The position numbers were made by a program, and so were the translations under genes. The notes under the pieces are model-generated. The model had not been told where the DNA came from and ran no database searches. It saw only the letters and a list, made by a program, of their open reading frames with translations. 33,575 nucleotides of DNA, taken from a virus (Duplodnaviria > Heunggongvirae > Uroviricota > Caudoviricetes). Every line of letters begins with the position of its first letter. Position 1 is the stretch's first letter. Where the stretch lies: IMG/VR virus record IMGVR_UViG_637000261_000005. One strand, given 5' to 3'. Positions 1 through 24,349 of this stretch are shown here, one piece after another.

Positions 1-141
1 TTACTGCTTACACTGTAAGAACGCCGCAAACTCCGCTCCCCAGAAGCTCATCCGTATTTCGCACAGCGAACCGTGCAGCATCCAGATGATGAGGATTGCC
101 GTCACGCAGAACGTGATGGCCGTAAGCGATTTTTGCGACAT
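1..141 (-). CDS. Hok/Gef-family type I toxin, HokA-like (46 aa)
   Basis: Own minus-strand translation (too short for the ORF track): MSQKSLTAITFCVTAILIIWMLHGSLCEIRMSFWGAEFAAFLQCKQ. It has one hydrophobic helix followed by the SLCE...AAFL.C signature of Hok/HokA. AGGAG (minus strand, 154-150) lies 8 nt before the ATG at 141-139. The stop codon is the first 3 nt of the window. Confidence 0.7.
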   Translation of the reverse strand: MSQKSLTAITFCVTAILIIWMLHGSLCEIRMSFWGAEFAAFLQCKQ

Positions 142-331
142 AGCGCTTGCTCCTTTTTCGGGGAGGCGCTAACCTATCACTTGCTTAGGGTAGACGGTTA
201 GGGCCTCGGTTAAACAAAAATGTTTTCCGGGGCCTTTCCACATCTGGCCTTCAGGTATTCCCTCCGACCATCAGCCGAAAGGCACCCGCGCGTAATCTAT
301 CGCTTTTTTGTTACTCCGGCAATTCTGCTCG
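142..331 (-). promoter_or_regulatory. Putative hok leader / antisense (mok-sok-like) control region, lying between the reconstructed ogr stop and hok
   Basis: Position upstream of the hok-like ORF. It contains GC-rich hairpins (for example GGCCTCGG...CCGGGGCC around 201-236 and GCCTTC...GAAAGGC around 248-281). No sequence-level assignment of Sok or mok was possible by eye. Confidence 0.3.
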
Positions 332-400
332 TTAATTCTGAGGTAAGGGCAAACTCATCTGATTGTTTCCTCTGTGTGAAGTTGGCAGTTCATGCCACGG
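332..400 (-). pseudogene. ogr: Displaced 3' end of ogr, separated from the 5' part by IS2
   Basis: Joining 1915..1720 to 400..332 and counting the shared ACGG once gives an uninterrupted 86-codon frame. It ends ...WHELPTSHRGNNQMSLPLPQN*. The LPLP tail resembles the C-terminus I recall for P2 Ogr (..HPLPSGQQ..). Confidence 0.5.
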
Positions 401-479
401 TAGACTGGCCCCCTGAATCTCCAGACAACCAGTATCACTTAAATAAGTGATAGTCTAAAAACTAGTCATTGGAGTACAG

Positions 480-845
480 ATGATTGATGTCTTAGGGCCG
501 GAGAAACGCAGACGGCGTACCACACAGGAAAGGATCGCAATTGTTCAGCAGAGCTTTGAACCGGGGATGACGGTCTCCCTCGTTGCCCGGCAACATGGTG
601 TAGCAGCCAGCCAGTTATTTCTCTGGCGTAAGCAATACCAGGAAGGAAGTCTTACTGCTGTGGCCGCCGGAGAACAGGTTGTTCCTGCCTCTGAACTTGC
701 TGCCGCCATGAAGCAGATTAAAGAACTCCTGCGCCTGCTCGGCAAGAAAACGATGGAAAATGAACTCCTCAAAGAAGCCGTTGAATATGGACGGGCAAAA
801 AAGTGGATAGCGCACGCGCCCTTATTGCCCGGGGATGGGGAGTAA
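480..845 (+). CDS. insC: IS2 transposase OrfA (InsC)
   Basis: The 121-aa [56 protein letters not shown]... is recognised as IS2 InsC (HTH, IS3 family). Confidence 0.95.
797..803 (+). promoter_or_regulatory. A6G (AAAAAAG) programmed -1 frameshift site joining IS2 orfA to orfB
   Basis: The heptamer sits in the orfA/orfB overlap, as is established for IS3-family elements. Confidence 0.7.
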
Positions 846-1708
846 GCTTAGTCAGCCGTTGTCTCCGGGTGTCGCGTGCGCAGTTGCACGTCATTCTCAG
901 ACGAACCGATGACTGGATGGATGGCCGCCGCAGTCGTCACACTGATGATACGGATGTGCTTCTCCGTATACACCATGTTATCGGAGAGCTGCCCACGTAT
1001 GGTTATCGTCGGGTATGGGCGCTGCTTCGCAGACAGGCAGAACTTGATGGTATGCCAGCGATCAATGCCAAACGTGTTTACCGGATCATGCGCCAGAATG
1101 CGCTGTTGCTTGAGCGAAAGCCTGCTGTACCGCCATCGAAACGGGCACATACAGGCAGAGTGGCCGTGAAAGAAAGCAATCAGCGATGGTGCTCTGACGG
1201 GTTCGAGTTCTGCTGTGATAACGGAGAGAGACTGCGTGTCACGTTCGCGCTGGACTGCTGTGATCGTGAGGCACTGCACTGGGCGGTGACTACCGGCGGC
1301 TTCAACAGTGAAACAGTACTGGACGTCATGCTGGGTGCGGTGGAACGCCGCTTCGGCAACGATCTTCCGTCGTCTCCAGTGGAGTGGCTGACGGATAATG
1401 GTTCATGCTACCGGGCTAATGAAACACGCCAGTTCGCCCGGATGTTGGGACTTGAACCGAAGAACACGGCGGTGCGGAGTCCGGAGAGTAACGGAATAGC
1501 AGAGAGCTTCGTGAAAACGATAAAGCGTGACTACATCAGTATCATGCCCAAACCAGACGGGTTAACGGCAGCAAAGAACCTTGCAGAGGCGTTCGAGCAT
1601 TATAACGAATGGCATCCGCATAGTGCGCTGGGTTATCGCTCGCCACGGGAATATCTGCGGCAGCGGGCTTGTAATGGGTTAAGTGATAACAGATGTCTGG
1701 AAATATAG
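803..1708 (+). CDS. insD: IS2 transposase OrfB (InsD), DDE integrase-like domain
   Basis: The 301-aa ORF ends ...[32 protein letters not shown] and is recognised as IS2 InsD. Confidence 0.95.
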
Positions 1709-1719
1709 GGGCAAATCCA

Positions 1720-1915
1720 ACGGGATGCCCTCTGATGAGTGAATGGGGGAGGCGTGCTTTGAAGTGAATTTGTGGAAGGCTTCCAGTGTTGAGAAACATA
1801 CGCCGCATTCTAGATTGTTACACTGATAATACTTTTGTCTCACGGTGTTTGAATCATTTTCCGGACGACTGGTGCGGATACGGGCAGATGCGCCACAAAG
1901 CGGACAACGGAACAT
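1720..1915 (-). pseudogene. ogr: Ogr late-gene transcription activator (zinc finger), 5' 65 codons, interrupted by IS2
   Basis: MFRCPLCGASARIRTSRPENDSNTVRQKYYQCNNLECGVCF... carries the CxxC...CxxxxC pattern and aligns with P2 Ogr (MFHCPLC...YHQCQNVNCSATF). The last 13 codons of the tracked 78-aa ORF ([12 protein letters not shown]) are read from the IS2 end. Confidence 0.85.
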
Positions 1916-1945
1916 AGCGACCTCTCTTATTGTAGTGCTTACACT

Positions 1946-1974
1946 ATTCTAGGTTGTATTCTCTAAGATTTAAA
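1946..1974 (-). promoter_or_regulatory. Candidate sigma70 promoter for ogr (-35 TTTAAA, 17-nt spacer, -10 TAGAAT)
   Basis: On the minus strand the -35 is at 1974-1969 and the -10 at 1951-1946. GAGAGG Shine-Dalgarno precedes the ogr ATG. Based on hexamer match only. Confidence 0.3.
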
Positions 1975-2020
1975 CATGACTTTCTCTATATAATGATTTT
2001 TAGCATTAGTTAATAAACGA

Positions 2021-2042
2021 ACGGCACTCTAAGGAGCGCCGT
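2021..2042 (-). terminator. Hairpin 9 nt downstream of the 1039-aa ORF (ACGGCACTC-TAAG-GAGCGCCGT, one mismatch), candidate terminator
   Basis: A 9-bp GC-rich stem sits in an otherwise AT-rich stretch and is followed on the minus strand by TCGTTTATT. It lies between the cargo gene stop (2051) and the ogr promoter candidate. Confidence 0.45.
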
Positions 2043-2050
2043 CAAAGATA

Positions 2051-5000
2051 TTATTCTGATGTCACTCTTTGCGAGTGAGCTATTTTTAAATCAGCGTTTC
2101 CTTCAAATACTATATTCAACTCATAGTTAAGAGTTAGCTTGAATTTATCTGAGTCACTTTTGATATTCTCTGAAGTGACATTTACTAACTTATTATTATC
2201 ATATTCTCTAATAATTAATTTAGTGAAGTAGTTATCCTTTACCACAAGAGAAAATGGTTGATTAACAAATGGTAAGAAGTAAACCTTACGGGTACCGGAT
2301 TCAGTAGTTATGTTCATAGAGCCATCATCATTTTTTCTCATTAGTTCTCTGAGGTTGGGATTATCGAAAAGCATACGATTATATTGCTGAAAGATCTCTT
2401 TACTCATCACAAGAACCAGTTTGCCAGCCAAGTCAGCAGATGATTTTATGTGATCAATCAACATATTGAAATCTTCTATTACGGTATGTTGCGAACAGCC
2501 AGTGCTAAATAAATTTGAAAGTATTATTCTCTGGATGTCCTTGAGAATTAAGTCTGCTTGAATATCACCTTCATTGATATAAGGGATGGATTCTATTCCT
2601 TCGGCATACGGTTCTTTATCTATCTTAATAGATATCTTATGTTTTGTGAAACAATCGCTAGCCTGCTTAAAATCAATAGATTTGAAAAGTGAAAGAGGGA
2701 GCGTTTTCTTGATGCGTTTACGAAGATGTTCTGATGTTTTACGTGCAGTGCTATCTAGTCGATGTACATCTATGGCAGCATCCTGAAGTCTCATATCAAG
2801 ATCTTTCTTTAGCATGTTAATATGCTCTTGAAGCAACTTTCTTAAGTTTTCTTTTTTTGTTTGGAGATCGTCCAATGTTAAAGTCAGCTTGATTTTAGTG
2901 TATTCGATGGAGTTACAAATTTTTGATAATACTCCAATGAGTCGTTGCTTCTCACGATATGTTATATAGTTGTTTTCTATTGCTTCTTTTATTTCTTTTG
3001 ATACGCTATCGTTCTTTTTAGAAAAAATTAATAATAGCTGAACCCATGATTGTTCCATATCAATAAATCCACAGTCAAAAACATTACTGTAAACTCTGCC
3101 CATCACCATGTCTGTTTTATCATAGTCACGTAAACGCCTTGCTAAACTATTCATCCACCCATTGTGCTCCATATTTTCAGACCATGTCCACAGGCAGATT
3201 CTAATTAATATCTTGATTAGTTGGCTTGCATTATCAATTTCTTCAGTGGGAGTTTCATATCCACCGGTTTGGTCAATAAGTTTACCCTCTAAAATAAGTT
3301 TAATGTAATGTGTCATTAGTTTGTCAGAAGTATTGATTCTTGATGTCAGATAAAGACATGTGCATATACGCATGTCAGTCAACGCATTTATGATGGCAAT
3401 ATTGAACCACTCTCTGTCTGAATTGAAGTTTAGTTTTTTGGATATGAAAAAACCCGGGTTAAAAAGCTGGCCTTTGTAACTGTATTTTTCTACCGAATGG
3501 CTGTCAATATTCATTGAGTGCTGCCATCGGTTAATAAGATCGACGGCTGTATCAATAGTAGAAGGATCGCGAGTCTGTGTTGCATCAATAATCATCGATG
3601 GAAGTTCTTGTAGTTGCGTTTTGCAAAATAATTCAAATAAATCTGAATTCTCTGTATTGCAGAAACGAAAGTTTATGCTTTCTTGATATTGCTCCCAAAC
3701 AGTGATATAGGTTCTTAATATACGATTATAACGTGAACGAAGCGAGGCATTTAAGAGTGATTGGTTGTTTCGGAACCATTCTGTTAATATTGACCATTGT
3801 GAACGAGTAATTCCCATATAGATACAAAGTTCATTGCTGATAAGATGTTTTCTATTATTGATAATACGCACTCCGCTCCAAAGACATAATTCAAAAAATC
3901 TTTCAGAAAGATTAATTTTATCCATGGAATTATTTGATATTTTATAAACTTCATCTGAAAACTCATATTGAAAACTCCGTTCAAATAATTCTGTAGTGAT
4001 CAGTAAGAAGTTATTGTTGGTATTATCATCTTGAAAAAAATACAAATCGCAGAGATTATTAAAGTTATTAATTAATGCAGAGATAGCATTGTCAAAACTA
4101 ATGAGATCAGAATCCCGCAGATACATATACGTATCTGCTGTTATAGCCTGCATTGTAAGACTTACGGAAAAATCTCCTCCTTTAATCGGAGCCCTATAAA
4201 AACATTGCTTAAGTATTTTTATTAATAAGCTGTCTGGTTTGATATTTTTAACGCTAAAAAGTATCTTACCCGTGGATTCTGTTTCTTTTGTACGATTATC
4301 ACCAATGACAAATGACGCAAAATGATTCTTCTTTTTTAGTTGGTAATTAATAAGATTAAGAGTAAGTTGAAAAGGACGGTGATATAAACTTAACTCATCT
4401 TCCTTAGAATAACTGCTAGCCACAGATATGTATTCTCCTTTGTAATCGGCTTGCGTGATTTCTAAATTTGAATAGTTATGTTTTTGATAGATAGGGTATA
4501 ACCTAAGCTTGGCTGAGATTTTGTTACAAATATGGGGCATTACTATTTCGAAGGCAATGTATCGCTTTATAATTATTTGCCGTTTTACATCATCAAGAAT
4601 TTCAAGACTCACGATAAAGAACCAAATAGAAAGAACTATGTTTATCAAAAGCCATAATATGCTGATTAGACAAGCTATACCATAAAGATAACTTCCAAAG
4701 ACAGTTTTAATTAGTACACTGAGAAGTATAAATCCTGATAAGAAAAGCCCGCTGAGTCCAGCAAGCATGAATCCTGAGTAACGCTGATAAGCAGTTTGGG
4801 CTATTTTTCTATCTGCCTTTTTTTGGAATAAGACACTTACTAAACCTATAACAAGGGGGTATACAATACCAATAATTGTCAATTGGCCACTTAAAATGGT
4901 TGTTTGCCATTCGGTTAATGAATGCCTAAACGGGAAATAATGTAAAAGATTATTTTTTATAAATAATTCGTTTAAATATCCAACATAAAGTAGTACAAAT

Positions 5001-5170
5001 GAAAAAGCTGATATGCAAAGTACTGATTTAACCGGTGAGGATGTTAATCTTATGATGTTTTTTTCAATAAAATTCCATTTTAAATTCGAATAAAATGGAT
5101 TTTTAACCATTTTATTACGAACATAGTTCTTTGCTAAAATCTCTGTTGCACTTAAAAATTGTCCAATCAT
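2051..5170 (-). CDS. Uncharacterised 1039-aa membrane protein (4-5 N-terminal TM helices plus about 840 aa of soluble, largely helical region); prophage cargo, function unknown
   Basis: A 3.1-kb uninterrupted ORF lies in about 28-32% GC DNA (my hand count of sampled lines), where stop codons should be frequent. Hydrophobic segments occur at about aa 49-66, 91-115, 132-154 and 160-190. A heptad-like charged stretch spans about aa 762-822. I found no Walker A, HExxH, nuclease, TIR or SIR2 signature. Confidence 0.9.
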   Translation of the reverse strand: MIGQFLSATEILAKNYVRNKMVKNPFYSNLKWNFIEKNIIRLTSSPVKSVLCISAFSFVLLYVGYLNELFIKNNLLHYFPFRHSLTEWQTTILSGQLTIIGIVYPLVIGLVSVLFQKKADRKIAQTAYQRYSGFMLAGLSGLFLSGFILLSVLIKTVFGSYLYGIACLISILWLLINIVLSIWFFIVSLEILDDVKRQIIIKRYIAFEIVMPHICNKISAKLRLYPIYQKHNYSNLEITQADYKGEYISVASSYSKEDELSLYHRPFQLTLNLINYQLKKKNHFASFVIGDNRTKETESTGKILFSVKNIKPDSLLIKILKQCFYRAPIKGGDFSVSLTMQAITADTYMYLRDSDLISFDNAISALINNFNNLCDLYFFQDDNTNNNFLLITTELFERSFQYEFSDEVYKISNNSMDKINLSERFFELCLWSGVRIINNRKHLISNELCIYMGITRSQWSILTEWFRNNQSLLNASLRSRYNRILRTYITVWEQYQESINFRFCNTENSDLFELFCKTQLQELPSMIIDATQTRDPSTIDTAVDLINRWQHSMNIDSHSVEKYSYKGQLFNPGFFISKKLNFNSDREWFNIAIINALTDMRICTCLYLTSRINTSDKLMTHYIKLILEGKLIDQTGGYETPTEEIDNASQLIKILIRICLWTWSENMEHNGWMNSLARRLRDYDKTDMVMGRVYSNVFDCGFIDMEQSWVQLLLIFSKKNDSVSKEIKEAIENNYITYREKQRLIGVLSKICNSIEYTKIKLTLTLDDLQTKKENLRKLLQEHINMLKKDLDMRLQDAAIDVHRLDSTARKTSEHLRKRIKKTLPLSLFKSIDFKQASDCFTKHKISIKIDKEPYAEGIESIPYINEGDIQADLILKDIQRIILSNLFSTGCSQHTVIEDFNMLIDHIKSSADLAGKLVLVMSKEIFQQYNRMLFDNPNLRELMRKNDDGSMNITTESGTRKVYFLPFVNQPFSLVVKDNYFTKLIIREYDNNKLVNVTSENIKSDSDKFKLTLNYELNIVFEGNADLKIAHSQRVTSE

Positions 5171-5260
5171 GAATTACTCTTCTATAAAGTGTGGGTCTAC
5201 TAACTAAACTGGAACTTTTACTATTGAGTCATATTCCCTTGGACGGGATGGACTGTGAAG

Positions 5261-5266
5261 ATTATA
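5261..5266 (-). promoter_or_regulatory. Perfect TATAAT -10 hexamer about 90 nt upstream of the cargo ORF (weak -35)
   Basis: The minus strand reads ...CCCACATGACAGAGGAAGTCAAGTATAATCTTC. This is the only consensus -10 I see in the 248-bp AT-rich gap 5171-5418. Confidence 0.25.
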
Positions 5267-5418
5267 CTTGACTTCCTCTGTCATGTGGGAAAAACATCCG
5301 TATTATTGTTAGCATCTGGTTGATGCCCCAACCTCTGACATCTAGTGGGCTGATACATTATCTTTTGTTCTTACTGTCAGTGTAGAAGCACATCTCAAAA
5401 ATAATATTTTTAAGAGAT

Positions 5419-6528
5419 TTATTCTGTTTCTGCTATCCATTCCGGGATTTTTGCTTCAAGTTCAAGCTGCGTGGTAAAGCCGCTGTTATCAATGGTGTGC
5501 TCGGCTTTTGCAATAGTCCAGTCCTGATAATCAATCTCGCTTTTAAAGCCTGTCACTGTGCCATGCATTTCGGGATAGAGTTCTGCACGACCACGCGCCA
5601 GCGTGATGGAGAATGATGCGGCTCCGCGTTGTAGCTGCTGCCACTTTGCCGCCGCTGCGCGTCTTGCTGCCTGCTCGTTCTGATAAGTCTTGCGTAACAC
5701 AAACACGTTGCCTTCCGCACCTTCCATATAGTCGCCTTCCCGACTGCTGCTTTTCTCCTTTTTGGGTTTTGGCGGTTTGCGGCGTTTCACGCTGACTTTT
5801 TTCTTTTTCCCGTAATTAAGATCAAGCCAGTAGGCGCGTACCCCCGTATACGCCTCGCGGTCAGCAATGCGGAACTGATGGCGATCGCCGCTGCTGCGTG
5901 TAATGGCGAACGAGGGCAACGGCTGCCCCTGTGCGTTCACGCCACCACCTGGCATGATGAATAACAGATTGCCGCTTTTTACCGTGGCGATTGCTCCCAG
6001 CATTTCCGCCATGCGCGTAAGAAAGGACATGTCGCTTTCTTCGGTCTGGTCGGCGTGGTCGATTTCGATATCCATCAGCATTTCGCTGATTTGCGGTTTC
6101 AGACCGTACCGATGAGTGATGGCGGATACCACACGCTCAACGGTCACATCATGCCAGGACACCTCACGTTTAACGTTAAATTCATCCCGAAAATCTGCGC
6201 TTCTGGCTGAAACAGTCAGCCTGTCCGGCGGTCCTTCGTGAGCGATTTCATCAACAATGTAAGTGCCTTTTTCTGTCAGCGGTTCCCCTTTCCAGCCAAT
6301 GAGAACCGTCAGACGCGCGCCCCGTGGCGGTAGCTGCAACTGACCATCCGCATCATCCAGCGTGATGGTGAGCTGGTCCGCCTCAAATCCCCGGTTGTCG
6401 GTCAGTTACAGGCTCATCAGGCGCTCCGCCACGCCTGACAGCGTTTTACCCTCCGAGAGAATATCAAAATCCGGCATTTTCACGGGGGCCGTGCCCTGAC
6501 TGAGCAATTGCATGGTGGTGTCGGTCAT
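5419..6528 (-). pseudogene. D: Tail protein gpD with an in-frame TAA after codon 40
   Basis: The two tracked ORFs (6406-6660 and 5419-6339) are in the same frame. Reading through gives ...GVAERLMSL*LTDNRGFEADQLTITLDDADGQLQLPPRGARLTVLIGWKGEPL..., which is colinear with P2 gpD (..RRLISLTMTDNRGFEADQLDIELDD..). The stop is at 6408-6406. The ATG at 6528 is preceded by GGGAGGGAG. Confidence 0.85.
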
Positions 6529-6582
6529 CTGCTCCCTCCCTGTGCGGCATGGTCGCATGTGCGTGCGGAGGGGGTTACTGCT

Positions 6583-6608
6583 TTTTGTTGTCGCCGTGGC
6601 GGGAGAAC
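6583..6608 (+). promoter_or_regulatory. TTTTGTTGT-N12-AGAAC element in the D|FI divergent intergenic region; candidate Ogr-responsive late promoter site
   Basis: The same 9-mer, 12-nt spacer and 5-mer recur at 25253-25278 in the O|P intergenic region. It resembles the TGT-N12-ACA dyad established for P2 late promoters but reads TGT-N12-AGA. Confidence 0.4.
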
Positions 6609-6685
6609 GGCGCAGGGGTGAGATTACGCGCGTGGTGGGTGATGATTGTTGCTGAATCATTTAACGGATACAAGGGGCTGAAGCT

Positions 6686-7870
6686 ATGAGTGAAACTCGT
6701 TTTCATGGTGCCCGTGTTACGGAGAATACCGACCTGGTAACAGCGATTAACGATGTTGATTCCAGCGTTATCGGTATCGTGGCAACGGCGGATGATGCGG
6801 ACGCGAAGCTGTTCCCGCTGAACAAGCCCACACTGCTGACCCGCGTCAATGACGTGCTGGGAAAATGCGGGACAACGGGGACGCTTTATCGTGCGCTTAA
6901 GGCCATCGCAGACCAGGTGAGCACAAAGGTGATCGTCGTTCGCGTGGCTGAACACAAAGAAGAAGACGGAAAGACGCAGGATCAACTGGTTATCGGTGGT
7001 TCTGAGGATGACGGCAGCTATACGGGGATGTATGCGCTGCTTGTTGCAGAGCAGGATGAAAGCATCGGATACCGTCCGCGTATTCTGGCCGCGCCGGAGC
7101 TGGACACGGAGGCGGTAACAAAATCCCTGTGCGTGATTGCAGATAAACTGCGCGCGTTTGTGTATGCCTCATGTCATGGCTGTAACACGATGGCCGAGGC
7201 AATTACCTACCGCCAGAAATTCAACGAACGTGAGGTGATGCTCTTATGGCCGGACTTCATCGCCTACAACCCGAAAAATGGCAAAAACGAAACGTTCCCC
7301 GCGCCTGCCTATGCGTGCGGCCTTCGTGCGTACATTGACCATGAACAGGGATGGCACAAATCGCTGTCCAACGTTCCGGTTAAAAATGTGCTGGGGATGT
7401 CGAGGCATGTGTTCTGGTCGTTGCAGGCCGAAGACAGCGATGCCAACAGCCTCAACGACAAAGAAATCACGACCATTATTCGTCGCAACGGGTTCCGCTT
7501 CTGGGGTAACCGCACACCGGAAACGAACGCCTACATCTTTGAGGTGTATACCCGAACCGCACAGGTGCTGGCTGATTCAATTGCGGAAGCGCAGTTTGAA
7601 ACCATCGACAGTCCACTGACGCCTGCGAATGTGAAGGATGTTATCAGTGCCATCAGGGCAAAACTGGATTCACTGGTGACTGCCGGGAAACTGATTGGCG
7701 CGGAGTGCTGGTATGACGTGGTGGATAACAGCACCACGGATTTACGTCAGGGACGTGTGCGTATTCGCTACAAATATACGCCCGTTCCGCCACTGGAAGA
7801 CATGGAGCTTTACCAGACGTTTACTGATGAATACTTTGAACCCGCATTTGCGGTGCTGGGAGGTGCCTGA
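6686..7870 (+). CDS. FI: Contractile tail sheath protein (gpFI)
   Basis: 394 aa, the size and sequence character of P2 FI. It is followed directly by tube, E/E', T and U. Confidence 0.9.
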   Translation: MSETRFHGARVTENTDLVTAINDVDSSVIGIVATADDADAKLFPLNKPTLLTRVNDVLGKCGTTGTLYRALKAIADQVSTKVIVVRVAEHKEEDGKTQDQLVIGGSEDDGSYTGMYALLVAEQDESIGYRPRILAAPELDTEAVTKSLCVIADKLRAFVYASCHGCNTMAEAITYRQKFNEREVMLLWPDFIAYNPKNGKNETFPAPAYACGLRAYIDHEQGWHKSLSNVPVKNVLGMSRHVFWSLQAEDSDANSLNDKEITTIIRRNGFRFWGNRTPETNAYIFEVYTRTAQVLADSIAEAQFETIDSPLTPANVKDVISAIRAKLDSLVTAGKLIGAECWYDVVDNSTTDLRQGRVRIRYKYTPVPPLEDMELYQTFTDEYFEPAFAVLGGA

Positions 7871-8380
7871 TGGCTGTGCCAAAACATCTTCGCTTTTTTA
7901 CGCTGTTTGTGGATGGTGAAAACGAAGTGGGTAATGTGACGTCCGTCACTCTGCCTAAGCTGACGCGCAAAACCGACAGCTACCGGGGTGGTGGCATGAT
8001 GGGTGCGGTAAGTATTGATCTCGGTCTGGACGACTCCGCGCTTGATGCGAGCTTTGTCATGGGGGCGCAGTTCGTGAGCTGTTCCTTAAGTATGGCGGCA
8101 CGATTGACGGCACGCTGCTGCGTTTTGCGGGTGAATACTACACCGATGCAGAAAGCGACCTGTATGAAGTCGAAATGCGCGGACGTGTGACGGAAATTGA
8201 TATGGGGGAAGCCAAACAGGGCGAAGCCACATCACACACTTACGCCATTAAAACACCTACTACAAGCTGAGTGTTAACGATCGCCCGTTGTGGGAGATTG
8301 ACCTGCTGAACTTCATTTACCGGAAGGACGGCAAGGACATTGTGCCCGATCGCATCCGTTCCGCGCTTGGGCTTGGCTGA
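7870..8380 (+). pseudogene. FII: Tail tube protein (gpFII) with two frameshifts
   Basis: Frame 0 reads MAVPKHLRFFTLFVDGENEVGNVTSVTLPKLTRKTDSYRGGGMMGAVSIDLGL...ASFVMG. Homology continues in a second frame from about 8070 (VRELFLKYGGTIDGTLLRFAGEYYTDAESDLYEVEMRGRVTEIDMGEAKQGEATSHTYAIK). It then moves to a third frame from 8258 (YYKLSVNDRPLWEIDLLNFIYRKDGKDIVPDRIRSALGLG*). The shifts lie near the G5 run at 8061-8065 and near 8250-8258. Confidence 0.85.
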
Positions 8381-8435
8381 TAAGTAATATGCTGGCGGCG
8401 CAGTGCGTCGCCTCTGACTGAAAAGGAGACAACAG

Positions 8436-8810
8436 ATGAAAGACATCGATACTGAAACCCGGAATAACACCGTGGCGGATAATGTGACGGCAGTTGAGGA
8501 TATGGCTGTCGAACGTGGCGTAAAACTGACCCGACCAATTGAGCGTGGTGCCGAAAAAATCACGTATGTGGAGATCACCGGGGCTATTGAGCAGGCTGGA
8601 TCCCTGCGTGGTCTGTCGCTGTCTGATGTGCTGAATCTGAAAGCGGATACCATGTTCACGCTGTTGCCTCGCGTGACCTCGCCACGACTGGATGAAGTGA
8701 TGATTAAAAAAATGTCGTCACGCGATTTTATTCAGTTGTGCGCTGTGGCTGTAAATTTTATGAGCGAGCCAGACTCTGGCGCGAAGAGCGTGCAGGAGAC
8801 GGCAGCGTAA
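8436..8810 (+). CDS. E: Tail assembly chaperone gpE
   Basis: AAGGAG lies 7 nt upstream of the ATG. The stretch ..LRGLSLSDVLNLKADTMFTLLPRVTSP.. is gpE-like. It occupies the position between tube and tape measure. Confidence 0.85.
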   Translation: MKDIDTETRNNTVADNVTAVEDMAVERGVKLTRPIERGAEKITYVEITGAIEQAGSLRGLSLSDVLNLKADTMFTLLPRVTSPRLDEVMIKKMSSRDFIQLCAVAVNFMSEPDSGAKSVQETAA

Positions 8811-8923
8811 TCACCCTGGTGTGCTTTGAGCACATCGAAGATCTGGTGGCGGATATTGCCGCCATTTTTAACTGGTCGCCCGCCGAAATCTTCATGATGA
8901 CGCCCGGCGAAGTGGTTAGCTGA
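8436..8923 (+). CDS. gpE+E' -1 frameshift fusion product
   Basis: The slippery heptamer A_AAT_TTT at 8753-8759 lies in the E zero frame (GTA AAT TTT). The -1 frame then reads KFYERARLWREERAGDGSVITLVCFEHIEDLVADIAAIFNWSPAEIFMMTPGEVVS* and ends 1 nt before the tape-measure ORF. This is the conserved tail-chaperone frameshift architecture. Confidence 0.75.
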
Positions 8924-8924
8924 C

Positions 8925-11768
8925 GTGAGCGGGCGGCACTTCGTAGCGGGAATGCAGACAATGAAGACTCTTGATATCCGGGTCGCTTTCAGCGCCGTTG
9001 ACAGGCTGACCCGGCCTGCCGAAAACGCCCGCCGCCTGATGGGGCAGTTTGGTGACTCCATCCAGCGAACGCAGGGGGCGATCAAAAATCTCGAGCGTCA
9101 GGCGCGATCATTTGAGCGCGCCCGTGACGCTGTCAGTAAAGCGGATGCTGGCATCGTGAAAGCACGACGCCAGCTTAACGCCCTTAATCAGTTACAACGC
9201 ACGGGTACAGTGCTCAGCGAAAAACAACAAAAGCTGATGCAGCAGTTAAGCACCCGGCTTGAACGCCTGAATGAATCGCGCACACGGGAAATTCAGAAAA
9301 TGCGGGAGCTTGGCGGAGAGCTGAAACGCCACGGCATTTCCCTGACAGGTAGCGATAACACCATCCAGCAGGCCATCAGACGCACCGAACAGTACAACAA
9401 CCAGCTTGAACGCGAACGGCAGGCGCTTGCGCGTGTAACACGGGCGCGTGAGCGGTATTCGCGCGCGCAGGAAACAGCGGGAAAACTGAAAACAGGTGGT
9501 GCGCTGGCAATTGGTGCGGCAGCGGCGGGCGGCTATGCTGCCGGGCGTTTTTTGCAGCCTGCGATCGGGTTCGGCAAAGAGATGTCCCGCGTTCAGGCAC
9601 TGACGCGAATCGACCAGAACAGCCCGCAGTTTAAGGCGCTGCGTGAGCAGGCGTTAAAACTTGGCTCTGAAACGCAGTTCACCGCAGGCGATGCCGCCAG
9701 TGGACAGGCATTTCTTGCAATGGCTGGCTTTACACCACAGGCCATTCAGGCTGCGCTCCCTGGCGTACTGAGCATGGCAACGGCTGGCGGTATGGACCTC
9801 GGTGAGACGGCGGATATTGGCTCAAATATTCTGACGCAGTTCGGTCTTTCTGCTGACCAGATGGACCGGGTCGGCGACACACTCACCGCAGCGTTTACCC
9901 GTACCAACACTGACCTTCGCGCACTGGGTGAAACCATGAAATATGCAGGTCCGGTGGCGGGTAAGCTGGGAATATCTCTGGAGCAGGCCGCAGCGATGGC
10001 GGGCGTGCTGGCGAATATGGGTATCAGGGGGAGTGATGCTGGTACGGCAATGCGTGCCAGCCTGGCTCGTCTGGCATCACCGCCAAAGGCGGCAGCAGAG
10101 GCGCTGAAAGAGCTTGGCGTGTCTGTCTCGGATGCCGGGGGCAAAATGCGCCCGATGGAGGATGTGCTGGCTGACCTTTATAAAGCTACCCGCAAATACG
10201 GGGAAGTTGACCGGGTATCGTTCTTTAAGGACATTGCCGGAGAAGAGGCTTTCACATCATTTATGGCCCTCGTTGATGCGGCAGGTGACGGCTCCTTACC
10301 CAAACTGAGAAAAGAACTTGAAGGCGCGCGCGGTGAGGCTGAACGCACGGCAAAGGTTATGGCCAACAACCTTGACGGCGATCTGAAATCACTCAGCAGT
10401 GCATGGGAAGGGTTGCGCATCCGCATTGCAGATCTGATTGACGGTCCGCTGCGTTCTGTCACGCAGTGGCTCACGCGTGTGGTATCAAAGGTGACGGCGC
10501 TGGCGCAGGCCCATCCCGCACTGACGCGCCAGCTACTGATTGCAGGCGGTGCATTGCTGGCAATGACTGCAACGGTTGGCTCGTTGTCGCTGGCTATTGG
10601 TGTGCTTGCTGGCCCGCTGGCAAAACTGCGTCTTGGTTTTTCCCTCCTGACCGGATCAATGAATGCTGTCAGGGTTCTGCCAGCACTATGGGGAATGGTG
10701 ACGGGTTCCGTTTCTTTACTGGGAGGCGCTATCGGGGCGTTGTTCAGTCCGGTTGGTCTTATCGTGGCTGCGCTTGCCGGAGCTGCCGTTCTTATCTGGA
10801 AATACTGGGATCCCATCAGGGCATTTTTTGCCGGGGTGTTCAGCGGGATTATGGAAAGGCTGACCCCGTTGCGCGAAACCTTTGAACGGTTTGGTCCTGT
10901 TTTTGACGCAATCGGGAGTGGGATCAGCCAGGTGTTTAACTGGTTTAAATCGCTGCTGTCACCGATGGAGTCCAGCAAGGAAACTCTGGATAAATGTACC
11001 AGTGCTGGCGAGATATTCGGTAACGTTCTTGGCGGTGCGTTACAACTTGTTCTGACACCTGCAAAAATGTTGCTGGATACGCTGGCGTGGATACTTGAAA
11101 AGCTTGGTGTGCTTCCGGATGAAGCGGAAAGGGCGCGCAAGAAAATCGAAGACGCACAGCGTGCGGCCATTCTTCAGGACAAGGTTGCCTTGCTTCAGGG
11201 GGATCTGGCGAAAATCAATCCGCCGAAGCCTGTGGAAAATGGCAATGGCACCGGAGGTGATAACCCCAAAGACAATAAACCGCTCACAGACAGCAATACC
11301 GGTACGCTGCGCAGACTCAGCAAAATTGCTGATAACACAGGTAAGCTGGTTGAGGAGACGAAAAAACGCATTGGCCCCGGCGATATTGTCTTTAAAAACC
11401 TGCCCCGAGCACTTGCTGTTCGTGGGGAGTGGCAGGAGCGGAAGATTGCGCAGGTCAGTAAGCCTGCCCCCGCAATTAATATCACACCCGTGGTTCCGGC
11501 TCCGCTGCCTCCGGCGCTGGTCCCTGTTGTTGCAGCCAGCTCCCGCCCGGTGGCGGAGGCTATACGATCTCCAGTGGCATCAGTTCCTGTAACTTCCCGT
11601 AACCGGGAGCCTGTTGCCTTCGGATTTGGTGGTGAAATTCATGTTCATCTGCATAACGTTGTTACGCAGAATCCCCGCGAACTGGCGAAACTGGTCGGTG
11701 AAATGGTCAGGGCAGAAATGGAACGGCGCGCCCGTGCCGGGCGTGGCTGTTTTTACGATAAAGATTGA
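8925..11768 (+). CDS. T: Tail tape measure protein (gpT)
   Basis: 947 aa. It has an N-terminal coiled-coil character and a central Gly/Ala-rich hydrophobic block, and sits after E/E'. The true start may be the ATG at 8952 or 8961 rather than the GTG at 8925. Confidence 0.9.
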   Translation: MSGRHFVAGMQTMKTLDIRVAFSAVDRLTRPAENARRLMGQFGDSIQRTQGAIKNLERQARSFERARDAVSKADAGIVKARRQLNALNQLQRTGTVLSEKQQKLMQQLSTRLERLNESRTREIQKMRELGGELKRHGISLTGSDNTIQQAIRRTEQYNNQLERERQALARVTRARERYSRAQETAGKLKTGGALAIGAAAAGGYAAGRFLQPAIGFGKEMSRVQALTRIDQNSPQFKALREQALKLGSETQFTAGDAASGQAFLAMAGFTPQAIQAALPGVLSMATAGGMDLGETADIGSNILTQFGLSADQMDRVGDTLTAAFTRTNTDLRALGETMKYAGPVAGKLGISLEQAAAMAGVLANMGIRGSDAGTAMRASLARLASPPKAAAEALKELGVSVSDAGGKMRPMEDVLADLYKATRKYGEVDRVSFFKDIAGEEAFTSFMALVDAAGDGSLPKLRKELEGARGEAERTAKVMANNLDGDLKSLSSAWEGLRIRIADLIDGPLRSVTQWLTRVVSKVTALAQAHPALTRQLLIAGGALLAMTATVGSLSLAIGVLAGPLAKLRLGFSLLTGSMNAVRVLPALWGMVTGSVSLLGGAIGALFSPVGLIVAALAGAAVLIWKYWDPIRAFFAGVFSGIMERLTPLRETFERFGPVFDAIGSGISQVFNWFKSLLSPMESSKETLDKCTSAGEIFGNVLGGALQLVLTPAKMLLDTLAWILEKLGVLPDEAERARKKIEDAQRAAILQDKVALLQGDLAKINPPKPVENGNGTGGDNPKDNKPLTDSNTGTLRRLSKIADNTGKLVEETKKRIGPGDIVFKNLPRALAVRGEWQERKIAQVSKPAPAINITPVVPAPLPPALVPVVAASSRPVAEAIRSPVASVPVTSRNREPVAFGFGGEIHVHLHNVVTQNPRELAKLVGEMVRAEMERRARAGRGCFYDKD

Positions 11769-11774
11769 GGAGTC

Positions 11775-12269
11775 ATGGCCATGATGATGATCTACGGCAT
11801 GTTTGTTTTTGAGCTGCGCACGCTGCCGCATCAGCAGTTACAGCAAAACAAAAGCTGGCGGCATGTGAAAAATGAACGCGTTAACCGTTCAGCAAGCTGG
11901 CAGTATATCGGTGCAGGTGATGATCGCATCGTTCTTTCTGGTGTGCTTTATCCTGAAATTACAGGTGGCGAAGTGTCGCTGTCGCTGCTGACTACGCAGG
12001 CGTATACAGGACGACCCTGGCCTTTGATTGATGGCGTCGGGCAGATTTACGGCATGTATGTCCTGACTGAAACGAATACGACCCGCTCCGAGTTTGATCG
12101 CTACGGTAAGGCGAAAAAGATAGAATTTTCACTGACTCTTGAACGCTGTGATGAGGATTTGCGGGAGCGCCTGCAATCCTCATCGTTCAGTGATATGCTG
12201 TCCGGCTTCAAAGATAAGGTGACATCATCTCTTAACAGCGCGGCCAGTTCAGTTAAAGGGCTGTTCTGA
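11775..12269 (+). CDS. U: Tail protein gpU
   Basis: MAMMMIYGMFVFELRTLPHQQLQQNKSWRHVKNERVNR... aligns with P2 gpU (MMMVLGLFVFMLRTVPYQELQYQRNWRHASNSRVNR..). Confidence 0.9.
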   Translation: MAMMMIYGMFVFELRTLPHQQLQQNKSWRHVKNERVNRSASWQYIGAGDDRIVLSGVLYPEITGGEVSLSLLTTQAYTGRPWPLIDGVGQIYGMYVLTETNTTRSEFDRYGKAKKIEFSLTLERCDEDLRERLQSSSFSDMLSGFKDKVTSSLNSAASSVKGLF

Positions 12270-12277
12270 TTTAACAC

Positions 12278-12308
12278 AAAAACCGCTAATGGTCAGATTA
12301 GCGGTTTT
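12278..12308. terminator. Bidirectional rho-independent terminator shared by convergent gpU and the invertase
   Basis: AAAAACCGCTAAT-GGTCAG-ATTAGCGGTTTT forms a 12-bp stem with T-rich tracts on both strands. The invertase stop codon lies in the right arm. Confidence 0.7.
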
Positions 12309-12915
12309 CATTTTCCTGAGTCTGCCCGGTTGTTTCTTCAGTCTGTATATCGCCTACAGGGTGATAACGATAAATCGTCGATGTGCCAATGCCGTAAATT
12401 ATTGCCAGTTGTTTTCTGTCGTGCCCGTTTTTGATTAGCCTTGCTATTTGCTCATGCTGTTCTTTTGTCAGCTTCGGTCGACGTCCGCCTGTGCGCCCCC
12501 TTGCGCGCGCTGCCGCCAGCCCGGCCAGTGTACGTTCAACAATTAATTCACGTTCCATTTCAGCCAGGGCACCCATCACGTGGAAGAAAAAACGCCCCAT
12601 TGGAGAAGATGTGTCTATGCTGTCGGTCAGACTGCGAAAATTAATCCCTCGCTCCCGTAGTTCCCCGACGAGAGAAATCAGATGTTTCATGCTTCGCCCG
12701 AGGCGATCCAGTTTCCAGACAACCAGCGTGTCACCTTTTTGAAGGCGCTTTAAAGCGCGTTTTAATCCCGGTCGGTCTGTCTTTGTCCCGCTTAATTTAT
12801 CTTCAAATATTTGTTCACATCCTGCACAAACAAGAGCGTTTTGTTGCAGGTCTGTATTCTGGTCATTTGTTGATACCCTTACATAGCCAATCAGCACACT
12901 GAATCTCCCGTCCAA
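12298..12915 (-). CDS. pin: Serine DNA invertase of the Gin/Pin/Cin/Hin family
   Basis: ..LIGYVRVSTNDQNTDLQQNALVCAGCEQIFEDKLSGTKTDRPGLKRALKRLQKGDTLVVWKLDRLGRSMKHLISLVGELRERGINFRSLTDSIDTSSPMGRFFFHVMGALAEMEREL.. is near-identical to Mu Gin as I recall it. The functional start is probably the GTG at 12897 (VLIGY). Confidence 0.95.
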   Translation of the reverse strand: MDGRFSVLIGYVRVSTNDQNTDLQQNALVCAGCEQIFEDKLSGTKTDRPGLKRALKRLQKGDTLVVWKLDRLGRSMKHLISLVGELRERGINFRSLTDSIDTSSPMGRFFFHVMGALAEMERELIVERTLAGLAAARARGRTGGRRPKLTKEQHEQIARLIKNGHDRKQLAIIYGIGTSTIYRYHPVGDIQTEETTGQTQENENR

Positions 12916-12951
12916 AAGCGCAAATCATGCCATGCAGGCCAGAAACGGCCA

Positions 12952-12977
12952 TTATTTAAAACCTCGGTTTACGAGAA
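12952..12977. promoter_or_regulatory. gix/pix-like recombination site (TTATTTAAAACC-TC-GGTTTACGAGAA)
   Basis: A 12+2+12 layout with AAACC/GGTTT half-site cores and a central TC. It closely resembles the Mu gix site TTATCCAAAACC-TC-GGTTTACAGGAA and is inverted relative to the site at 15631-15656. Confidence 0.85.
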
Positions 12978-13673
12978 CTCGGCACAAGCGGGGAGAAAAT
13001 ACCGTTACTCAGTACAGCGAATACCTGGACCAATCGACAAACATTCAGCGGTGGCCTTTCTGGGGAACTGTCCGGCAATGCCGCTACTGCAACAAAGCTG
13101 AAAACAGCACGAAAAATTGCTGGAGTTGGTTTTGATGGTTCTAGCGATATCTCAATTAGTGCCAAAAATGTCAATGCATTTGCACTCCGACAAACAGGTA
13201 ATACTGTTAATGGTGATACATCCGTTGGATGGAATTGGGATAGTGGTGCATATAACGCCCTGATTGGTGGTGCATCTGCATTAATTCTTCACTTTAATAT
13301 AAATGCTGGTAGCTGTCCTGCCGTACAATTCCGTGTGAATTATAAAAATGGTGGCATTTCCTACAGGTCGGCTCGTGATGGTTATGGGGTTGAATTACGT
13401 TGGTCAGATTTCTATACCACGACACGAAAACCTTCAGCGGGAGATGTTGGTGCATATACGCGGGCAGAATGTAACTCAATGTTTATTACAGGTATTCGCC
13501 TTGGCGGTCTGTCATCTGTTCAGACATGGAATGGTCCCGGCTGGTCTGACAGGTCAGGTTATGTCGTTACGGGTTCAGTTAACGGAAACCGTGATGAATT
13601 AATTGATACAACACAGGCAAGGCCAATTCAGTATTGCATTAATGGGACGTGGTATAACGCGGGGAGTATTTAA
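12963..13673 (+). CDS. Silent alternative tail-fibre C-terminal cassette (no start of its own; would fuse to the gpH constant part after inversion)
   Basis: The frame is open from the crossover site. After inversion the fibre would read ..VIEYLGL|RELGTSGEKIPLLSTANTWTNRQTFSGGLSGELSGNAATATKLKTARKIAGVGFDGSSDISISAKNV...RPIQYCINGTWYNAGSI*. Its C-terminal motif parallels the expressed ..[17 protein letters not shown]. Confidence 0.8.
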   Translation, partial: LGLRELGTSGEKIPLLSTANTWTNRQTFSGGLSGELSGNAATATKLKTARKIAGVGFDGSSDISISAKNVNAFALRQTGNTVNGDTSVGWNWDSGAYNALIGGASALILHFNINAGSCPAVQFRVNYKNGGISYRSARDGYGVELRWSDFYTTTRKPSAGDVGAYTRAECNSMFITGIRLGGLSSVQTWNGPGWSDRSGYVVTGSVNGNRDELIDTTQARPIQYCINGTWYNAGSI

Positions 13674-13675
13674 CG

Positions 13676-14209
13676 ATGATGCACTTAAAAAACATTACTG
13701 CTGGCAACCCTAAAACAAAAGAGCAATACCAGCTAACAAAGCAATTTAACATCAAATGGCTTTATTCAGATGATGGAAAAAACTGGTATGAGGAACAAAA
13801 GAATTTCCAGCCAGACACTTTGAAAATGGTCTATTACCATAACGGCGTTATTATTTGTATTGAAAAGGATGTTTCAGCAATTAATCCGGAAGGCGCAAGC
13901 GTCGTTGAATTACCTGATATTACAGCAAATCGCCGGGCTGATATTTCGGGGAAATGGTTGTTCAAAGATGGCGTAGTGATAAAGCGAACTTATACCGAGG
14001 AAGAGCAGAGGCAACAAGCGGAAAATGAAAAGCAAAGCCTGTTGCAACTTGTCAGGGATAAAACCCAGCTATGGGACTCACAGCTACGGCTGGGCATCAT
14101 TTCCGACGAGAATAAACAAAAATTAACCGAGTGGATGCTCTATGCGCAGAAAGTCGAATCTACAGACACCTCCAGCCTGCCAGTAACGTTTCCCGAACAA
14201 CCAGAATGA
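13676..14209 (+). CDS. Tail fibre assembly protein (Mu U / Tfa family), silent orientation
   Basis: [40 protein letters not shown]... has the typical Tfa N-terminus. The gene is intact at 177 aa. Confidence 0.9.
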   Translation: MMHLKNITAGNPKTKEQYQLTKQFNIKWLYSDDGKNWYEEQKNFQPDTLKMVYYHNGVIICIEKDVSAINPEGASVVELPDITANRRADISGKWLFKDGVVIKRTYTEEEQRQQAENEKQSLLQLVRDKTQLWDSQLRLGIISDENKQKLTEWMLYAQKVESTDTSSLPVTFPEQPE

Positions 14210-14237
14210 GAGAAGGCCCGATATTGGGCCTTAATTT

Positions 14238-14846
14238 TTACTCAGGCTTTTGTGGCCATTCGGGATTTGCTGTATCCACACGGCTGACCAGAACGCTGTA
14301 GCGTTCCCATGACTCCAGTCGTGTGCGTTCCTCATCCATCGCCATATTCAGCCTGACAGCGCGTTCCAGTGGCTGAATAACGCTTTCAGCTTCAGAAAGC
14401 AACGCGACCTTTTGTGATTCGGCCTGTTGTTGCTGTTCGTCTGCTGTATAAATCCGCTTAACCACAGTTCCGTCCTTAAACATCCACTTCCCTGAATCAT
14501 CGGCACGACGATTGGCTGTTATATCTGGAATCTCAACGACACTAAAGCCTTCGGGATTAAGTGTTGGGGCATCTTTGGTTATGGCAACAATAATATTATT
14601 TTCGTCGTATACAATCTTTATGGTGTCGTCCTGAAAGTTATTTACTTCCTCATACCAGTTTTTACCGTCTTCGGACCATAACCAGATAACATCAAAATTC
14701 TTTGTTAGCTGATATTGTTCTTTTGTTTTTGGATTTCCGGACTTAATATTTTTTAATATGCTGCATAATTTACACCTGTGCGACGTTATACCATGTGCCA
14801 TTGATGTATTTTTGTATTGGTCTGAAGATGGCTTCATCATCGCCAT
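14238..14846 (-). CDS. Tail fibre assembly protein (Tfa family), expressed orientation; start codon problematic
   Basis: ..[62 protein letters not shown]... is TfaE/Mu U-like. The expected ATG (14766, MQH..) is out of frame by 1 nt. The only in-frame ATGs (14801, 14846) lie inside gpH. Confidence 0.75.
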
Positions 14847-23274: not shown

Positions 23275-24326
23275 TTAGCTGTCGGCGAACTTCAGGCCAG
23301 TAACCATCGCGCACTTGCCATAGTCTTCAACGACATAAGCGTCATTGATGGACTGGTAGGTGGCGATGCGGTTGTATTCCGGCTCGTCTTTCATCAGGCG
23401 ACGCATTGAACCTTTCTGCCAGTAAATCGACAGGTTGTTGAACGAGGTGATCAGCATCGTTGCATCCGGGAAGAACGGCGCAAGGAACACGCCCAGCCCG
23501 CCAATGGTGCGCGATGACAGGATGAGCTGCCCGGCGAGTAATTCCGCATTGGGATTCTGGCCGCTGATGCTGTTCAGCACGGGCAGACGCAGCGAGTTAA
23601 ACAGGTTGCGCCCCATAATCACCACGAGGTCGTCAGCTTCCTTGTGCCATTCATCCAGCAGGGATGAACGCGCGTCCTGTACCAGTGCATCAGCGTTCGC
23701 ATACTTACCCGCGTGCGCCACGGTGTTGTCCATGTTGCGGGAGGTCAGCGTCACGTCATTCATAACGCGTTCGCTGGCGTCGGTTCTGATGTGCTCCAGC
23801 CAGCCCACGTTAACGTCCTGAAGCAGCTTGTTGGTGCTGAAGTTGGACTCATCCGCGTGAGACGTGCCGTTGAAACCGATCATGATGCGGTCAAGCGCCA
23901 CCTGTCGGGCAATCTGTGCGCTGATGCGGGACTGAAAATCAGGGTGTGCCGACCAGGCATCAAGCTGCGGATACGAAATAAACGTGTCGTAGTTCACCTG
24001 TTCACACTGATATTTGCGGTTTTTCAGATCAACCACGTTATTCGGGTTACGGCGTTTTGTGCCGTCATAACTGGTATTCGTGCGCGCAATCGGTCCTGTG
24101 GTATCCAGGAGGATTTTTTCGCCTTTCTGGTCGGTCACGCCGATCACGTTATTTTTTTCGTAAATTCGGTACTTTCCTTTGAGGTGTTTTCAAAACGCTG
24201 CTGCACCGCGGGTTCCACGGTAAATCGCGACACCAGTGCAGATACCGGGATATTATTAAGCGACACCTGCTGCGCCATATAGCAACCCAGCTTGTTGCGG
24301 GTAATATCTGACATCACCAGATTCAT
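23275..24326 (-). pseudogene. N: Major capsid protein gpN, frameshifted at or next to an A7 run
   Basis: The upstream ORF reads ..SRFTVEPAVQQRFENTSKESTEFTKKIT* (compare P2 N ..KKFTVEPSVTQTLMNTMQESSDFLTRIN..). Homology continues in another frame as ..VIGVTDQKGEKILLDTTGP... The junction is ACGAAAAAAATAACGTGATC (T7 on the plus strand at 24152-24158). Confidence 0.8.
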
Positions 24327-24349
24327 AAAAAATTTGCTCCTTTGTCTAA

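Follow-up and report, generated by a model that had tools for sequence, protein, structure and literature searches.

What a single AT-rich gene is doing between two genes that adjoin each other in related phages, and how it came to be there, is the question raised by one locus in a 33,575-nucleotide stretch of viral DNA (Duplodnaviria; Heunggongvirae; Uroviricota; Caudoviricetes; IMG/VR record IMGVR_UViG_637000261_000005). The whole of this stretch is called the window here, and the locus lies in it between gpD and ogr of a P88-like prophage. The segment that separates the two genes is, with high confidence, a horizontally acquired cassette with a single cargo gene. That the cargo gene serves in defence is probable. 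The explanation that best covers the whole, an acquired moron cassette with a single-gene anti-phage membrane protein, is held with a confidence only somewhat above even, and the further suggestion that the protein senses phage capsids is a tentative and rather doubtful one. The cassette consists of the following features.

1952..5418, minus strand: low-GC (guanine plus cytosine) cargo cassette made up of an upstream region, one open reading frame (ORF) and a terminator hairpin, delimited by the P88 alignment, the junctions and GC content
5171..5418 (248 nt), minus strand: upstream region with a candidate weak promoter, TTCCCA (5291-5286), 19 nt, TATAAT (5266-5261), read directly
2051..5170, minus strand: ORF for a 1039-amino-acid (aa) protein of an uncharacterised family, the sole long ORF of the region
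2020..2043, minus strand: terminator-like hairpin found by a terminator scan; 6 of its 10 pairs are G-C, and its T run is weak

An earlier note on this DNA had proposed horizontal acquisition between two conserved phage genes, and phage P88 (L009) supplies the direct evidence for it, with 6 nt where the window has 3,467 bp. P88 aligns to window positions 1722-1955 and 5423-5900, the two blocks being separated in P88 by those 6 nt. Read directly, the P88 junction runs from the gpD stop TGA through ggaact and the ogr leader, TAGAATAG, to the ATG, whereas in the window the gpD stop TAA (5421-5419) is followed by 3,467 nt and then by TAGAATAG from 1951, with the ATG at 1915. Because P88 has just 6 nt between the gpD stop and the ogr leader, the insert is placed at 1952-5418 (3,467 bp). 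Of the two edges first proposed, the right one, at the gpD stop, is exact, P88 homology restarting at 5423 beside a stop codon that occupies 5419-5421; the left one, put at the ogr start, was off by 36 nt, as the insert begins at 1952 and positions 1916-1951, the 36 nt 5' of the ogr ATG that begin with TAGAAT, are P88 sequence and form the conserved ogr leader.

Composition likewise sets the segment apart from the surrounding phage genome. A sliding-window profile gives GC fractions per 200-nt window of 0.25-0.39 from ~1900 to ~5450 against 0.50-0.64 on both flanks, so that the sharp low-GC island described earlier is borne out, with a hand estimate (28-30%) slightly below the exact 33.2% of 1916-5418. 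The remaining window (5419-33575) has 53.5% and gpD 53.9% by exact count; the cargo ORF has 32.8%, and 29.7% at third codon positions. The 248-bp upstream gap is indeed present and was called AT-rich, but at 35-40% GC it is less so than the ORF. Genomes of Escherichia coli and Shigella have about 51% GC, relative to which an island at 33% is AT-rich, as would be expected of foreign DNA silenced by H-NS; such silencing, which the earlier note had suggested, may apply here. Insertion by a transposon or at an att/integrase-type site was considered, and repeats were sought at the insert ends; the insert has neither direct nor inverted terminal repeats beside it, merely short chance repeats, and nothing therefore points to a transposon or an integrase site. 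In 50,697 phage genomes neither megablast nor tblastn found a match to the island or its protein, and the island is therefore untraceable to any sequenced phage.

The position between gpD and ogr is one at which related prophages differ. With the ends of ogr and gpD as query, the two genes are neighbors in 720 of the 1,202 E. coli genomes that carry both, as they are in P88, and in the remaining ~480 the query halves match at separate places. The cargo was inspected in three of these ~480 genomes, and each of these other P88-like prophages holds a different gene at the junction.

L006 4460-5599: YecA-family gene
L007 5142-5807: gene for a 221-aa hypothetical protein
L008 4404-5801: gene for a 465-aa hypothetical protein, on the opposite strand

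The gpD|ogr junction is taken to be a cargo site because related prophages have either nothing or different cargo there, and the original ogr leader is retained over 13-43 nt, varying by cargo. The present cargo is rare: among 5,426 complete E. coli genomes, 5 have it, every time at the gpD|ogr junction, and eight IMG/VR prophage contigs hold it at >=98% identity; the 90% cluster of its protein has 692 members, chiefly from Shigella and E. coli. As a layout, low-GC cargo amid the conserved genes of P2-type prophages is nothing unusual and is well described as a class, and the junction in P88-like prophages offers a further site that can be mined for genes.

Whether the cassette is also a self-contained unit of transcription is a separate matter. 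The earlier note had read it as a promoter-gene-terminator moron; of that reading the insertion, the composition and the terminator stand, and the promoter of its own is a weak candidate. The TATAAT at 5266-5261 on the minus strand is there, but taken alone it is no evidence of a promoter, the hexamer occurring at chance frequency (shuffles give an expectation of 10.6, and the window has 10, of which 5 lie inside the AT-rich island). A consensus scan calls no promoter at this site because the only -35-like hexamer, the poor TTCCCA, sits 19 nt away; across the region promoter-like sites number 26, against 16.8 +/- 4.1 in shuffles. What support there is comes from the closest homologue (71% identity, in a different context), which has TTGCCA-19-TATACT at the aligned position, and the cassette may thus carry a weak promoter of its own. 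The hairpin expected after the ORF is present at 2020-2043 and begins 7 nt past the stop codon. Since terminator-like sites are in no excess over shuffles (4 against 2.8 +/- 2.1), only the conservation of the hairpin across contexts carries weight: four genomic contexts that are unrelated to one another have it at the same position after the stop, 3 of the 10 pairs being changed on both sides, and a role as the terminator of the cassette is reasonably supported by this pattern of compensatory pairs. Gene, upstream region and hairpin recur together in unrelated elements. A noncoding RNA or riboswitch in the island was entertained and set aside, an Rfam search of the region giving no family at the gathering score.

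The insertion also bears on the gene that follows it. An ogr promoter had been suggested at 1946-1974, and a site is found there, TTTAAA-17-TAGAAT, matching the consensus at 9 of 12 positions; it straddles the junction, however, with a -10 from the phage and a -35 from the cargo. Everything 5' of the TAGAAT that precedes ogr has been replaced by the cargo insertion, and any ogr promoter therefore now uses a -35 from cargo DNA. Read-through from gpD must cross the putative cargo terminator before it reaches ogr.

The cargo protein itself belongs to a family that annotation resources have largely passed over. PGAP names it either 'MFS transporter' or 'hypothetical'; Pfam and NCBIfam give no family at E <= 1, PHROGs gives only a noise match (E 0.015), and nine distant members of the family are also without Pfam domains. 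The first of these names, which implies a transporter of the major facilitator superfamily with twelve transmembrane (TM) helices in two six-helix bundles, was rejected, the protein having four helices within aa 47-187 and no MFS profile. A word-indexed search found 183 homologues, and an exhaustive profile search found 507 clusters at 50% identity, nearly all of them full length (1030-1150 aa) and aligned over their whole span, so that the architecture of the family is constant. Their hosts are Enterobacterales and other Gammaproteobacteria (Shewanella, Pseudoalteromonas, Psychrobacter, Vibrio and others), together with one Desulforhopalus, and by tblastn the family is present on 377 plasmid records, 216 of them conjugative, chiefly from Escherichia, Klebsiella and Enterobacter. 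No description of the family was found in the literature, whether by protein accessions or under the topics of capsid-fold and TM defence proteins. From hydropathy and predicted models, three parts can be distinguished in the protein.

4610..5032, minus strand: N-terminal membrane domain with four predicted TM helices, aa 47-187, from hydropathy
2696..4591, minus strand: central body, aa 194-825, a small alpha/beta module (aa ~236-330) and then a long alpha-helical stretch, probably cytoplasmic
2066..2695, minus strand: C-terminal HK97-fold (major-capsid-protein/encapsulin-like) domain, aa ~826-1035, from predicted models

The architecture of four TM helices, helical body and HK97 fold is thus a predicted one, and its parts have diverged to very different extents. 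Hydropathy peaks fall at aa 47-65, 97-115, 136-154 and 169-187, and the positive-inside rule suggests an N-in topology that would place everything after aa 190 in the cytoplasm. The ratio of nonsynonymous to synonymous substitution rates (dN/dS) against the 71%-identical homologue is 0.195 for the whole protein, from which the family is judged to be under purifying selection. The TM domain is the best-conserved part, with 52% identity to a distant clade and a dN/dS of 0.10; the invariant columns of the family alignment (A1) lie mostly in aa 80-203, and many of the invariant residues of the TM domain are polar or small. Q96, G101, P105, G133, G138, G141 and N177 are among these invariant TM residues. 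The central parts have 20-24% identity to the distant clade and dN/dS of 0.12-0.24, and the HK97-like domain, the least conserved part, has 17% and 0.31. Strong conservation of a membrane module, combined with rapid evolution of the distal domain attached to it, would be expected of an effector coupled to a sensor or specificity domain.

It is the distal domain that lends the protein its unusual character. An AlphaFold2 model of the full protein (29-sequence alignment; predicted local distance difference test, pLDDT, 81.6; predicted template-modelling score, pTM, 0.66) consists of a helical membrane domain, the alpha/beta module at aa ~236-330, the long helical region and a C-terminal alpha/beta domain, and aa 796-1039 remodelled alone reach a pLDDT of 89.2 and a pTM of 0.85. 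Structural matches of the domain model include encapsulins, T4 gp24, lambda gpE and HK97 gp5, as well as Ccm of SaPIbov5, the capsid protein of a gene transfer agent (GTA) and a P2-family capsid protein; a Foldseek search of BFVD, by another method and against another library, gave capsid or head proteins as the named top matches, with probability 1.00. Along the domain, a beta hairpin, a 21-residue helix, a mixed block of helices and strands, and long strands follow one another, an order that, in the model, fits the E-loop, spine helix, A domain and P domain. The topology of the HK97 fold was accordingly recovered on predicted models, with two models and two search methods. The combination of a conserved membrane domain with a capsid-fold domain, as predicted here, was found described nowhere, and no paper was found that reports an HK97-fold domain within a defence protein.

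The inference of a defence function depends chiefly on where the homologues are found. Seven loci other than the window were examined, and known or candidate anti-phage genes are immediate neighbors of the gene in all seven of these contexts, a placement typical of defence islands, although the loci were hand-picked and the count is not a statistical enrichment. The gene is solitary in every context and has no conserved partner.

L015 3681-8228, short metagenomic contig with the 71%-identical homologue: complete Lamassu LmuA/LmuB/LmuC, E 1e-81 to 5e-197
L004, IncF plasmid: CBASS cyclase with 4TM effector, PDC-S06, HsdR, VapBC and DUF3800
L003, plasmid: HEC-04/AbiL-like ATPase and RES protein
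L011, P4-like primase-bearing island: PDC-S15, PDC-M04A and HNH protein
L013, integrative and conjugative element (ICE): HEC-08, with RES and Mrr-like genes
L016, plasmid-like contig: PDC-S35 TIR protein
L026 2890-12529, integrase-bearing IMG/VR contig: the gene as part of an hsdM-hsdS-[gene]-hsdR operon, with a 7-nt overlap with hsdS

In the last of these the homologue has 1071 aa and 25% identity, and hsdR is split into two ORFs.

These observations allow a mechanism to be outlined. The cargo would be a single-gene anti-phage system conferring superinfection immunity, its product a solitary protein of the inner membrane. The cytoplasmic part, including the capsid-like domain, would recognize a component of an infecting phage, most likely the assembling capsid proteins, with which it would have a fold in common. 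Recognition would set off the effector, the conserved membrane domain, which would perturb the inner membrane and lead to abortive infection. Capsid proteins are favored as the trigger because the sensor-like end of the protein has, in the models, the fold of a capsid protein, because HK97-fold proteins interact with one another in capsomers, and because defence systems are known to be triggered often by capsid proteins. In its boldest form, the proposal would make the family a new class of single-protein immune receptor with an exapted capsid fold, in which capsid mimicry lets the HK97-like domain engage or co-assemble with the phage capsid protein while the four-helix effector collapses the membrane; this version is offered as a speculation that is more probably wrong than right, and a shade less secure than capsid-linked sensing as such. 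Were it true, the receptor would be spread over enterobacterial plasmids, prophages, satellite-like islands and ICEs.

Several observations weigh against a defence function or against capsid sensing and must be set beside this proposal. The family has no homology link to any known defence protein, the cargo protein matching none of the hidden Markov models (HMMs) of PADLOC-DB v2 (0 families at E <= 1). The seven neighborhoods were, as stated, chosen by hand, and several of the neighbors are merely candidate systems (PDC, HEC). No member of the family was found by tblastn in the 50,697 phage genomes, and in IMG/VR it is almost confined to the present prophage lineage; the family is therefore mainly a gene of plasmids and islands. 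The evidence that the cassette has a promoter of its own is weak. For the HK97-like domain, a profile search of PDB sequences gave 0 matches, and relatedness in sequence to the prophage's own P2-family capsid protein was tried with hhalign and rejected at a probability of 0.8%; with no signal at the level of sequence, the fold assignment is therefore one made on predicted models and not a demonstrated homology. The domain could, moreover, serve self-assembly instead of sensing. Finally, the present copy and a 99.9%-identical E. coli allele (L001) are separated by 4 non-synonymous changes (codons 239, 489, 718 and 961) and no synonymous one. The L001/L002 allele has K239, N718 and C961; the present copy has Arg-961 where at least 90% of family members have Cys, and it may be impaired, as in an early loss of function in a Shigella-type background.

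The alternative that survives best is that the cargo is a fitness gene of lysogens or mobile elements unrelated to defence, such as a transporter or channel, an envelope-stress or colonization factor, or an addiction gene. The 'MFS transporter' label and the conserved multi-TM domain would suit such a gene, as would the lack of a defence HMM match and the many homologues that lie on conjugative plasmids near toxin-antitoxin and partition genes. The four helices, however, come with no transporter domain in Pfam or NCBIfam, a cytoplasmic extension of 850 aa with a capsid fold (both predicted) would be unexpected in a transporter, and defence genes adjoin the gene in seven of seven contexts, one homologue lying inside an hsd operon. 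A gene of this kind is accordingly unlikely, although it is the alternative to be taken most seriously.

A second alternative keeps the capsid fold but dispenses with killing. Here the tethered HK97-fold domain would co-assemble with incoming capsid protein and divert or block procapsids, the TM helices being an anchor, in the manner of the satellite-encoded capsid homologues that redirect the capsid assembly of their helpers. The TM domain is by far the best-conserved part of the protein, which is unexpected of a passive anchor, and the protein resembles no capsid protein in sequence, that of the prophage itself included; such an assembly poison is distinctly improbable.

Less probable again is a superinfection-exclusion (Sie) factor that acts at the inner membrane during DNA entry, with a cytoplasmic part that is only structural. 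The gene is prophage cargo for a predicted inner-membrane protein, and prophages commonly carry genes for membrane proteins that prevent injection; known Sie proteins are small, however, whereas some 85% of this one is predicted to be cytoplasmic, most of its family lies on plasmids and islands and not in phages, and the variable part is the cytoplasmic C terminus and not the periplasmic loops. The single-gene anti-phage protein thus continues to be the preferred reading of the cargo, and the remaining alternative, that of a passenger gene, turns on the condition of the prophage around it.

The flanks of the cassette belong to a P88-like prophage (genus Xuanwuvirus, Peduoviridae, P2-type), and window 5419-12300 has 96-98% identity to phages P88, P884B11 and 520873. 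In P88-like phages the tail block FI-FII-E-T-U is divergent from gpD, and ogr with hok/gef forms the prophage end. Pfam matches in the window include Phage_GPD, Ogr_Delta, GpU, the P2-family capsid protein and the GPO scaffold. Beside the cassette lie the following features.

1679..1951, minus strand: late-gene activator ogr and its 36-nt leader, with DNA of an insertion sequence (IS) in place of the 3' end; Pfam Ogr_Delta, E 4e-14
401..1719, plus strand: IS3-family (IS2-like) element interrupting ogr, with OrfA (121 aa, HTH_Tnp_1) and OrfB (301 aa, rve)
5419..6528, minus strand: gpD (tail/baseplate hub), a pseudogene with a premature stop at 6406-6408, codon 41

This prophage is decaying, ogr being cut by the IS element and gpD carrying a nonsense codon. 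Intact ogr in relatives is 261 bp long, and homology to P88 and to a related prophage (L002) ends here at ~1720, the element replacing approximately the last 21 of 86 ogr codons, so that the late-gene activator has probably been damaged. Window 1-400 corresponds to L002 7425-7824 and window 1720-2000 to L002 7821-8101, and the 4-bp overlap of the flanks (397-400 and 1720-1723) fits a target-site duplication. Codon 41 of gpD is a stop where the intact 369-aa gpD of L002 has Ser; the remainder stays in frame, and the part past the stop has a Pfam Phage_GPD match.

The P2-family major capsid gene (23275-24348, minus strand) is open for just 290 codons, with in-frame stops right upstream, and its Pfam match begins at profile position 50; this gene may also be broken, as a third sign of decay. 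That the cargo gene is no more than a decaying passenger without current function, the youngest part of a dying prophage, would agree with the damage to ogr and gpD and the apparent N-terminal truncation of the capsid gene, with the four non-synonymous changes unaccompanied by a synonymous one and the loss of a nearly invariant Cys, and with the many Shigella cluster members that are fragments, but it is very unlikely given that the 3,120-nt frame at 33% GC is still fully open, that four changes are too few to separate relaxed selection from chance, and that the family as a whole appears to be under purifying selection.

Two other parts of the prophage may be recorded. At 12298-14846 a serine DNA invertase gene (Resolvase and HTH_7) adjoins two opposed Caudo_TAP tail-fibre assembly genes, as in P88, and the arrangement looks like an invertible host-range switch. 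The window starts (1-141, minus strand, and 142-400) with a hok/gef toxin gene, which in E. coli relatives ends this type of prophage beside ihfA; an Rfam search of 1-7000 at the gathering score reported no Sok/hok RNA family.

The interest of the locus lies in its cargo, which is new and in sequence matches neither a known defence family nor the MFS transporters. A widespread family, mostly of Gammaproteobacteria, has here no domain annotation and a wrong name in the databases, and is absent from the defence catalogue searched. Should it turn out to act in defence, a one-gene system that lends itself readily to testing would be added, and if the capsid-like domain is its sensor, a fold derived from viruses would be used on the side of the host to detect that same fold in invaders. 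Many IncF resistance plasmids found in E. coli and Klebsiella have the gene, which may thus affect the phage susceptibility of clinical strains.

Comparison with systems already described places the cassette, its neighborhoods and its product in turn. Like the cargo of the published P2 hotspots, a class enriched in anti-phage functions, it is an AT-rich acquired gene among conserved phage genes, swapped between near-identical prophages. Those hotspots are the gpA-gpQ, tail-gene and integrase-side positions, whereas the present cassette lies, in P88-like (Xuanwuvirus) prophages, at the gpD|ogr junction, and the protein is unrelated to the cargos of the published surveys and has 0 matches in PADLOC. 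With the morons of lambdoid phages the cassette has in common a position between genes adjacent in P88, a deviant composition and a hairpin of its own that travels with the gene. Lambdoid morons are promoter-gene-terminator units, whereas the promoter here is only a candidate, and unlike them the present cassette is found mostly outside phages, on plasmids, in islands and in an ICE.

A different precedent is provided by the anticodon nuclease PrrC, a defence gene embedded in a type I restriction-modification operon. One distant homologue is embedded in a similar way, between hsdS and hsdR and overlapping hsdS; this is seen in that locus alone, and the copy in the window adjoins no restriction-modification system. 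For the HK97-like domain, the nearest structural parallels are the encapsulins, GTAs and the satellite Ccm of SaPIbov5, which are free-standing and form shells, whereas the present domain of ~210 aa ends a 1039-aa membrane protein and, having no sequence similarity to them, is not known to form shells.

Closest in the hypothesized function are CapRel-SJ46, Lit and Avs7/8/10, defence proteins that are triggered by the major capsid protein of phages (PMC13581612). The likeness would lie in an HK97-fold capsid protein as the trigger and in the union of sensor and effector in one polypeptide. The sensors of these proteins, however, bind the capsid protein through TPR-like or other folds or recognize a short motif. 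The present protein, unlike them, has no STAND NTPase, toxin or protease domain, and is itself predicted to bear the capsid fold, together with a putative membrane effector; if the proposal is true, it would be without precedent among defence systems in sensing capsid assembly through a capsid-derived domain.

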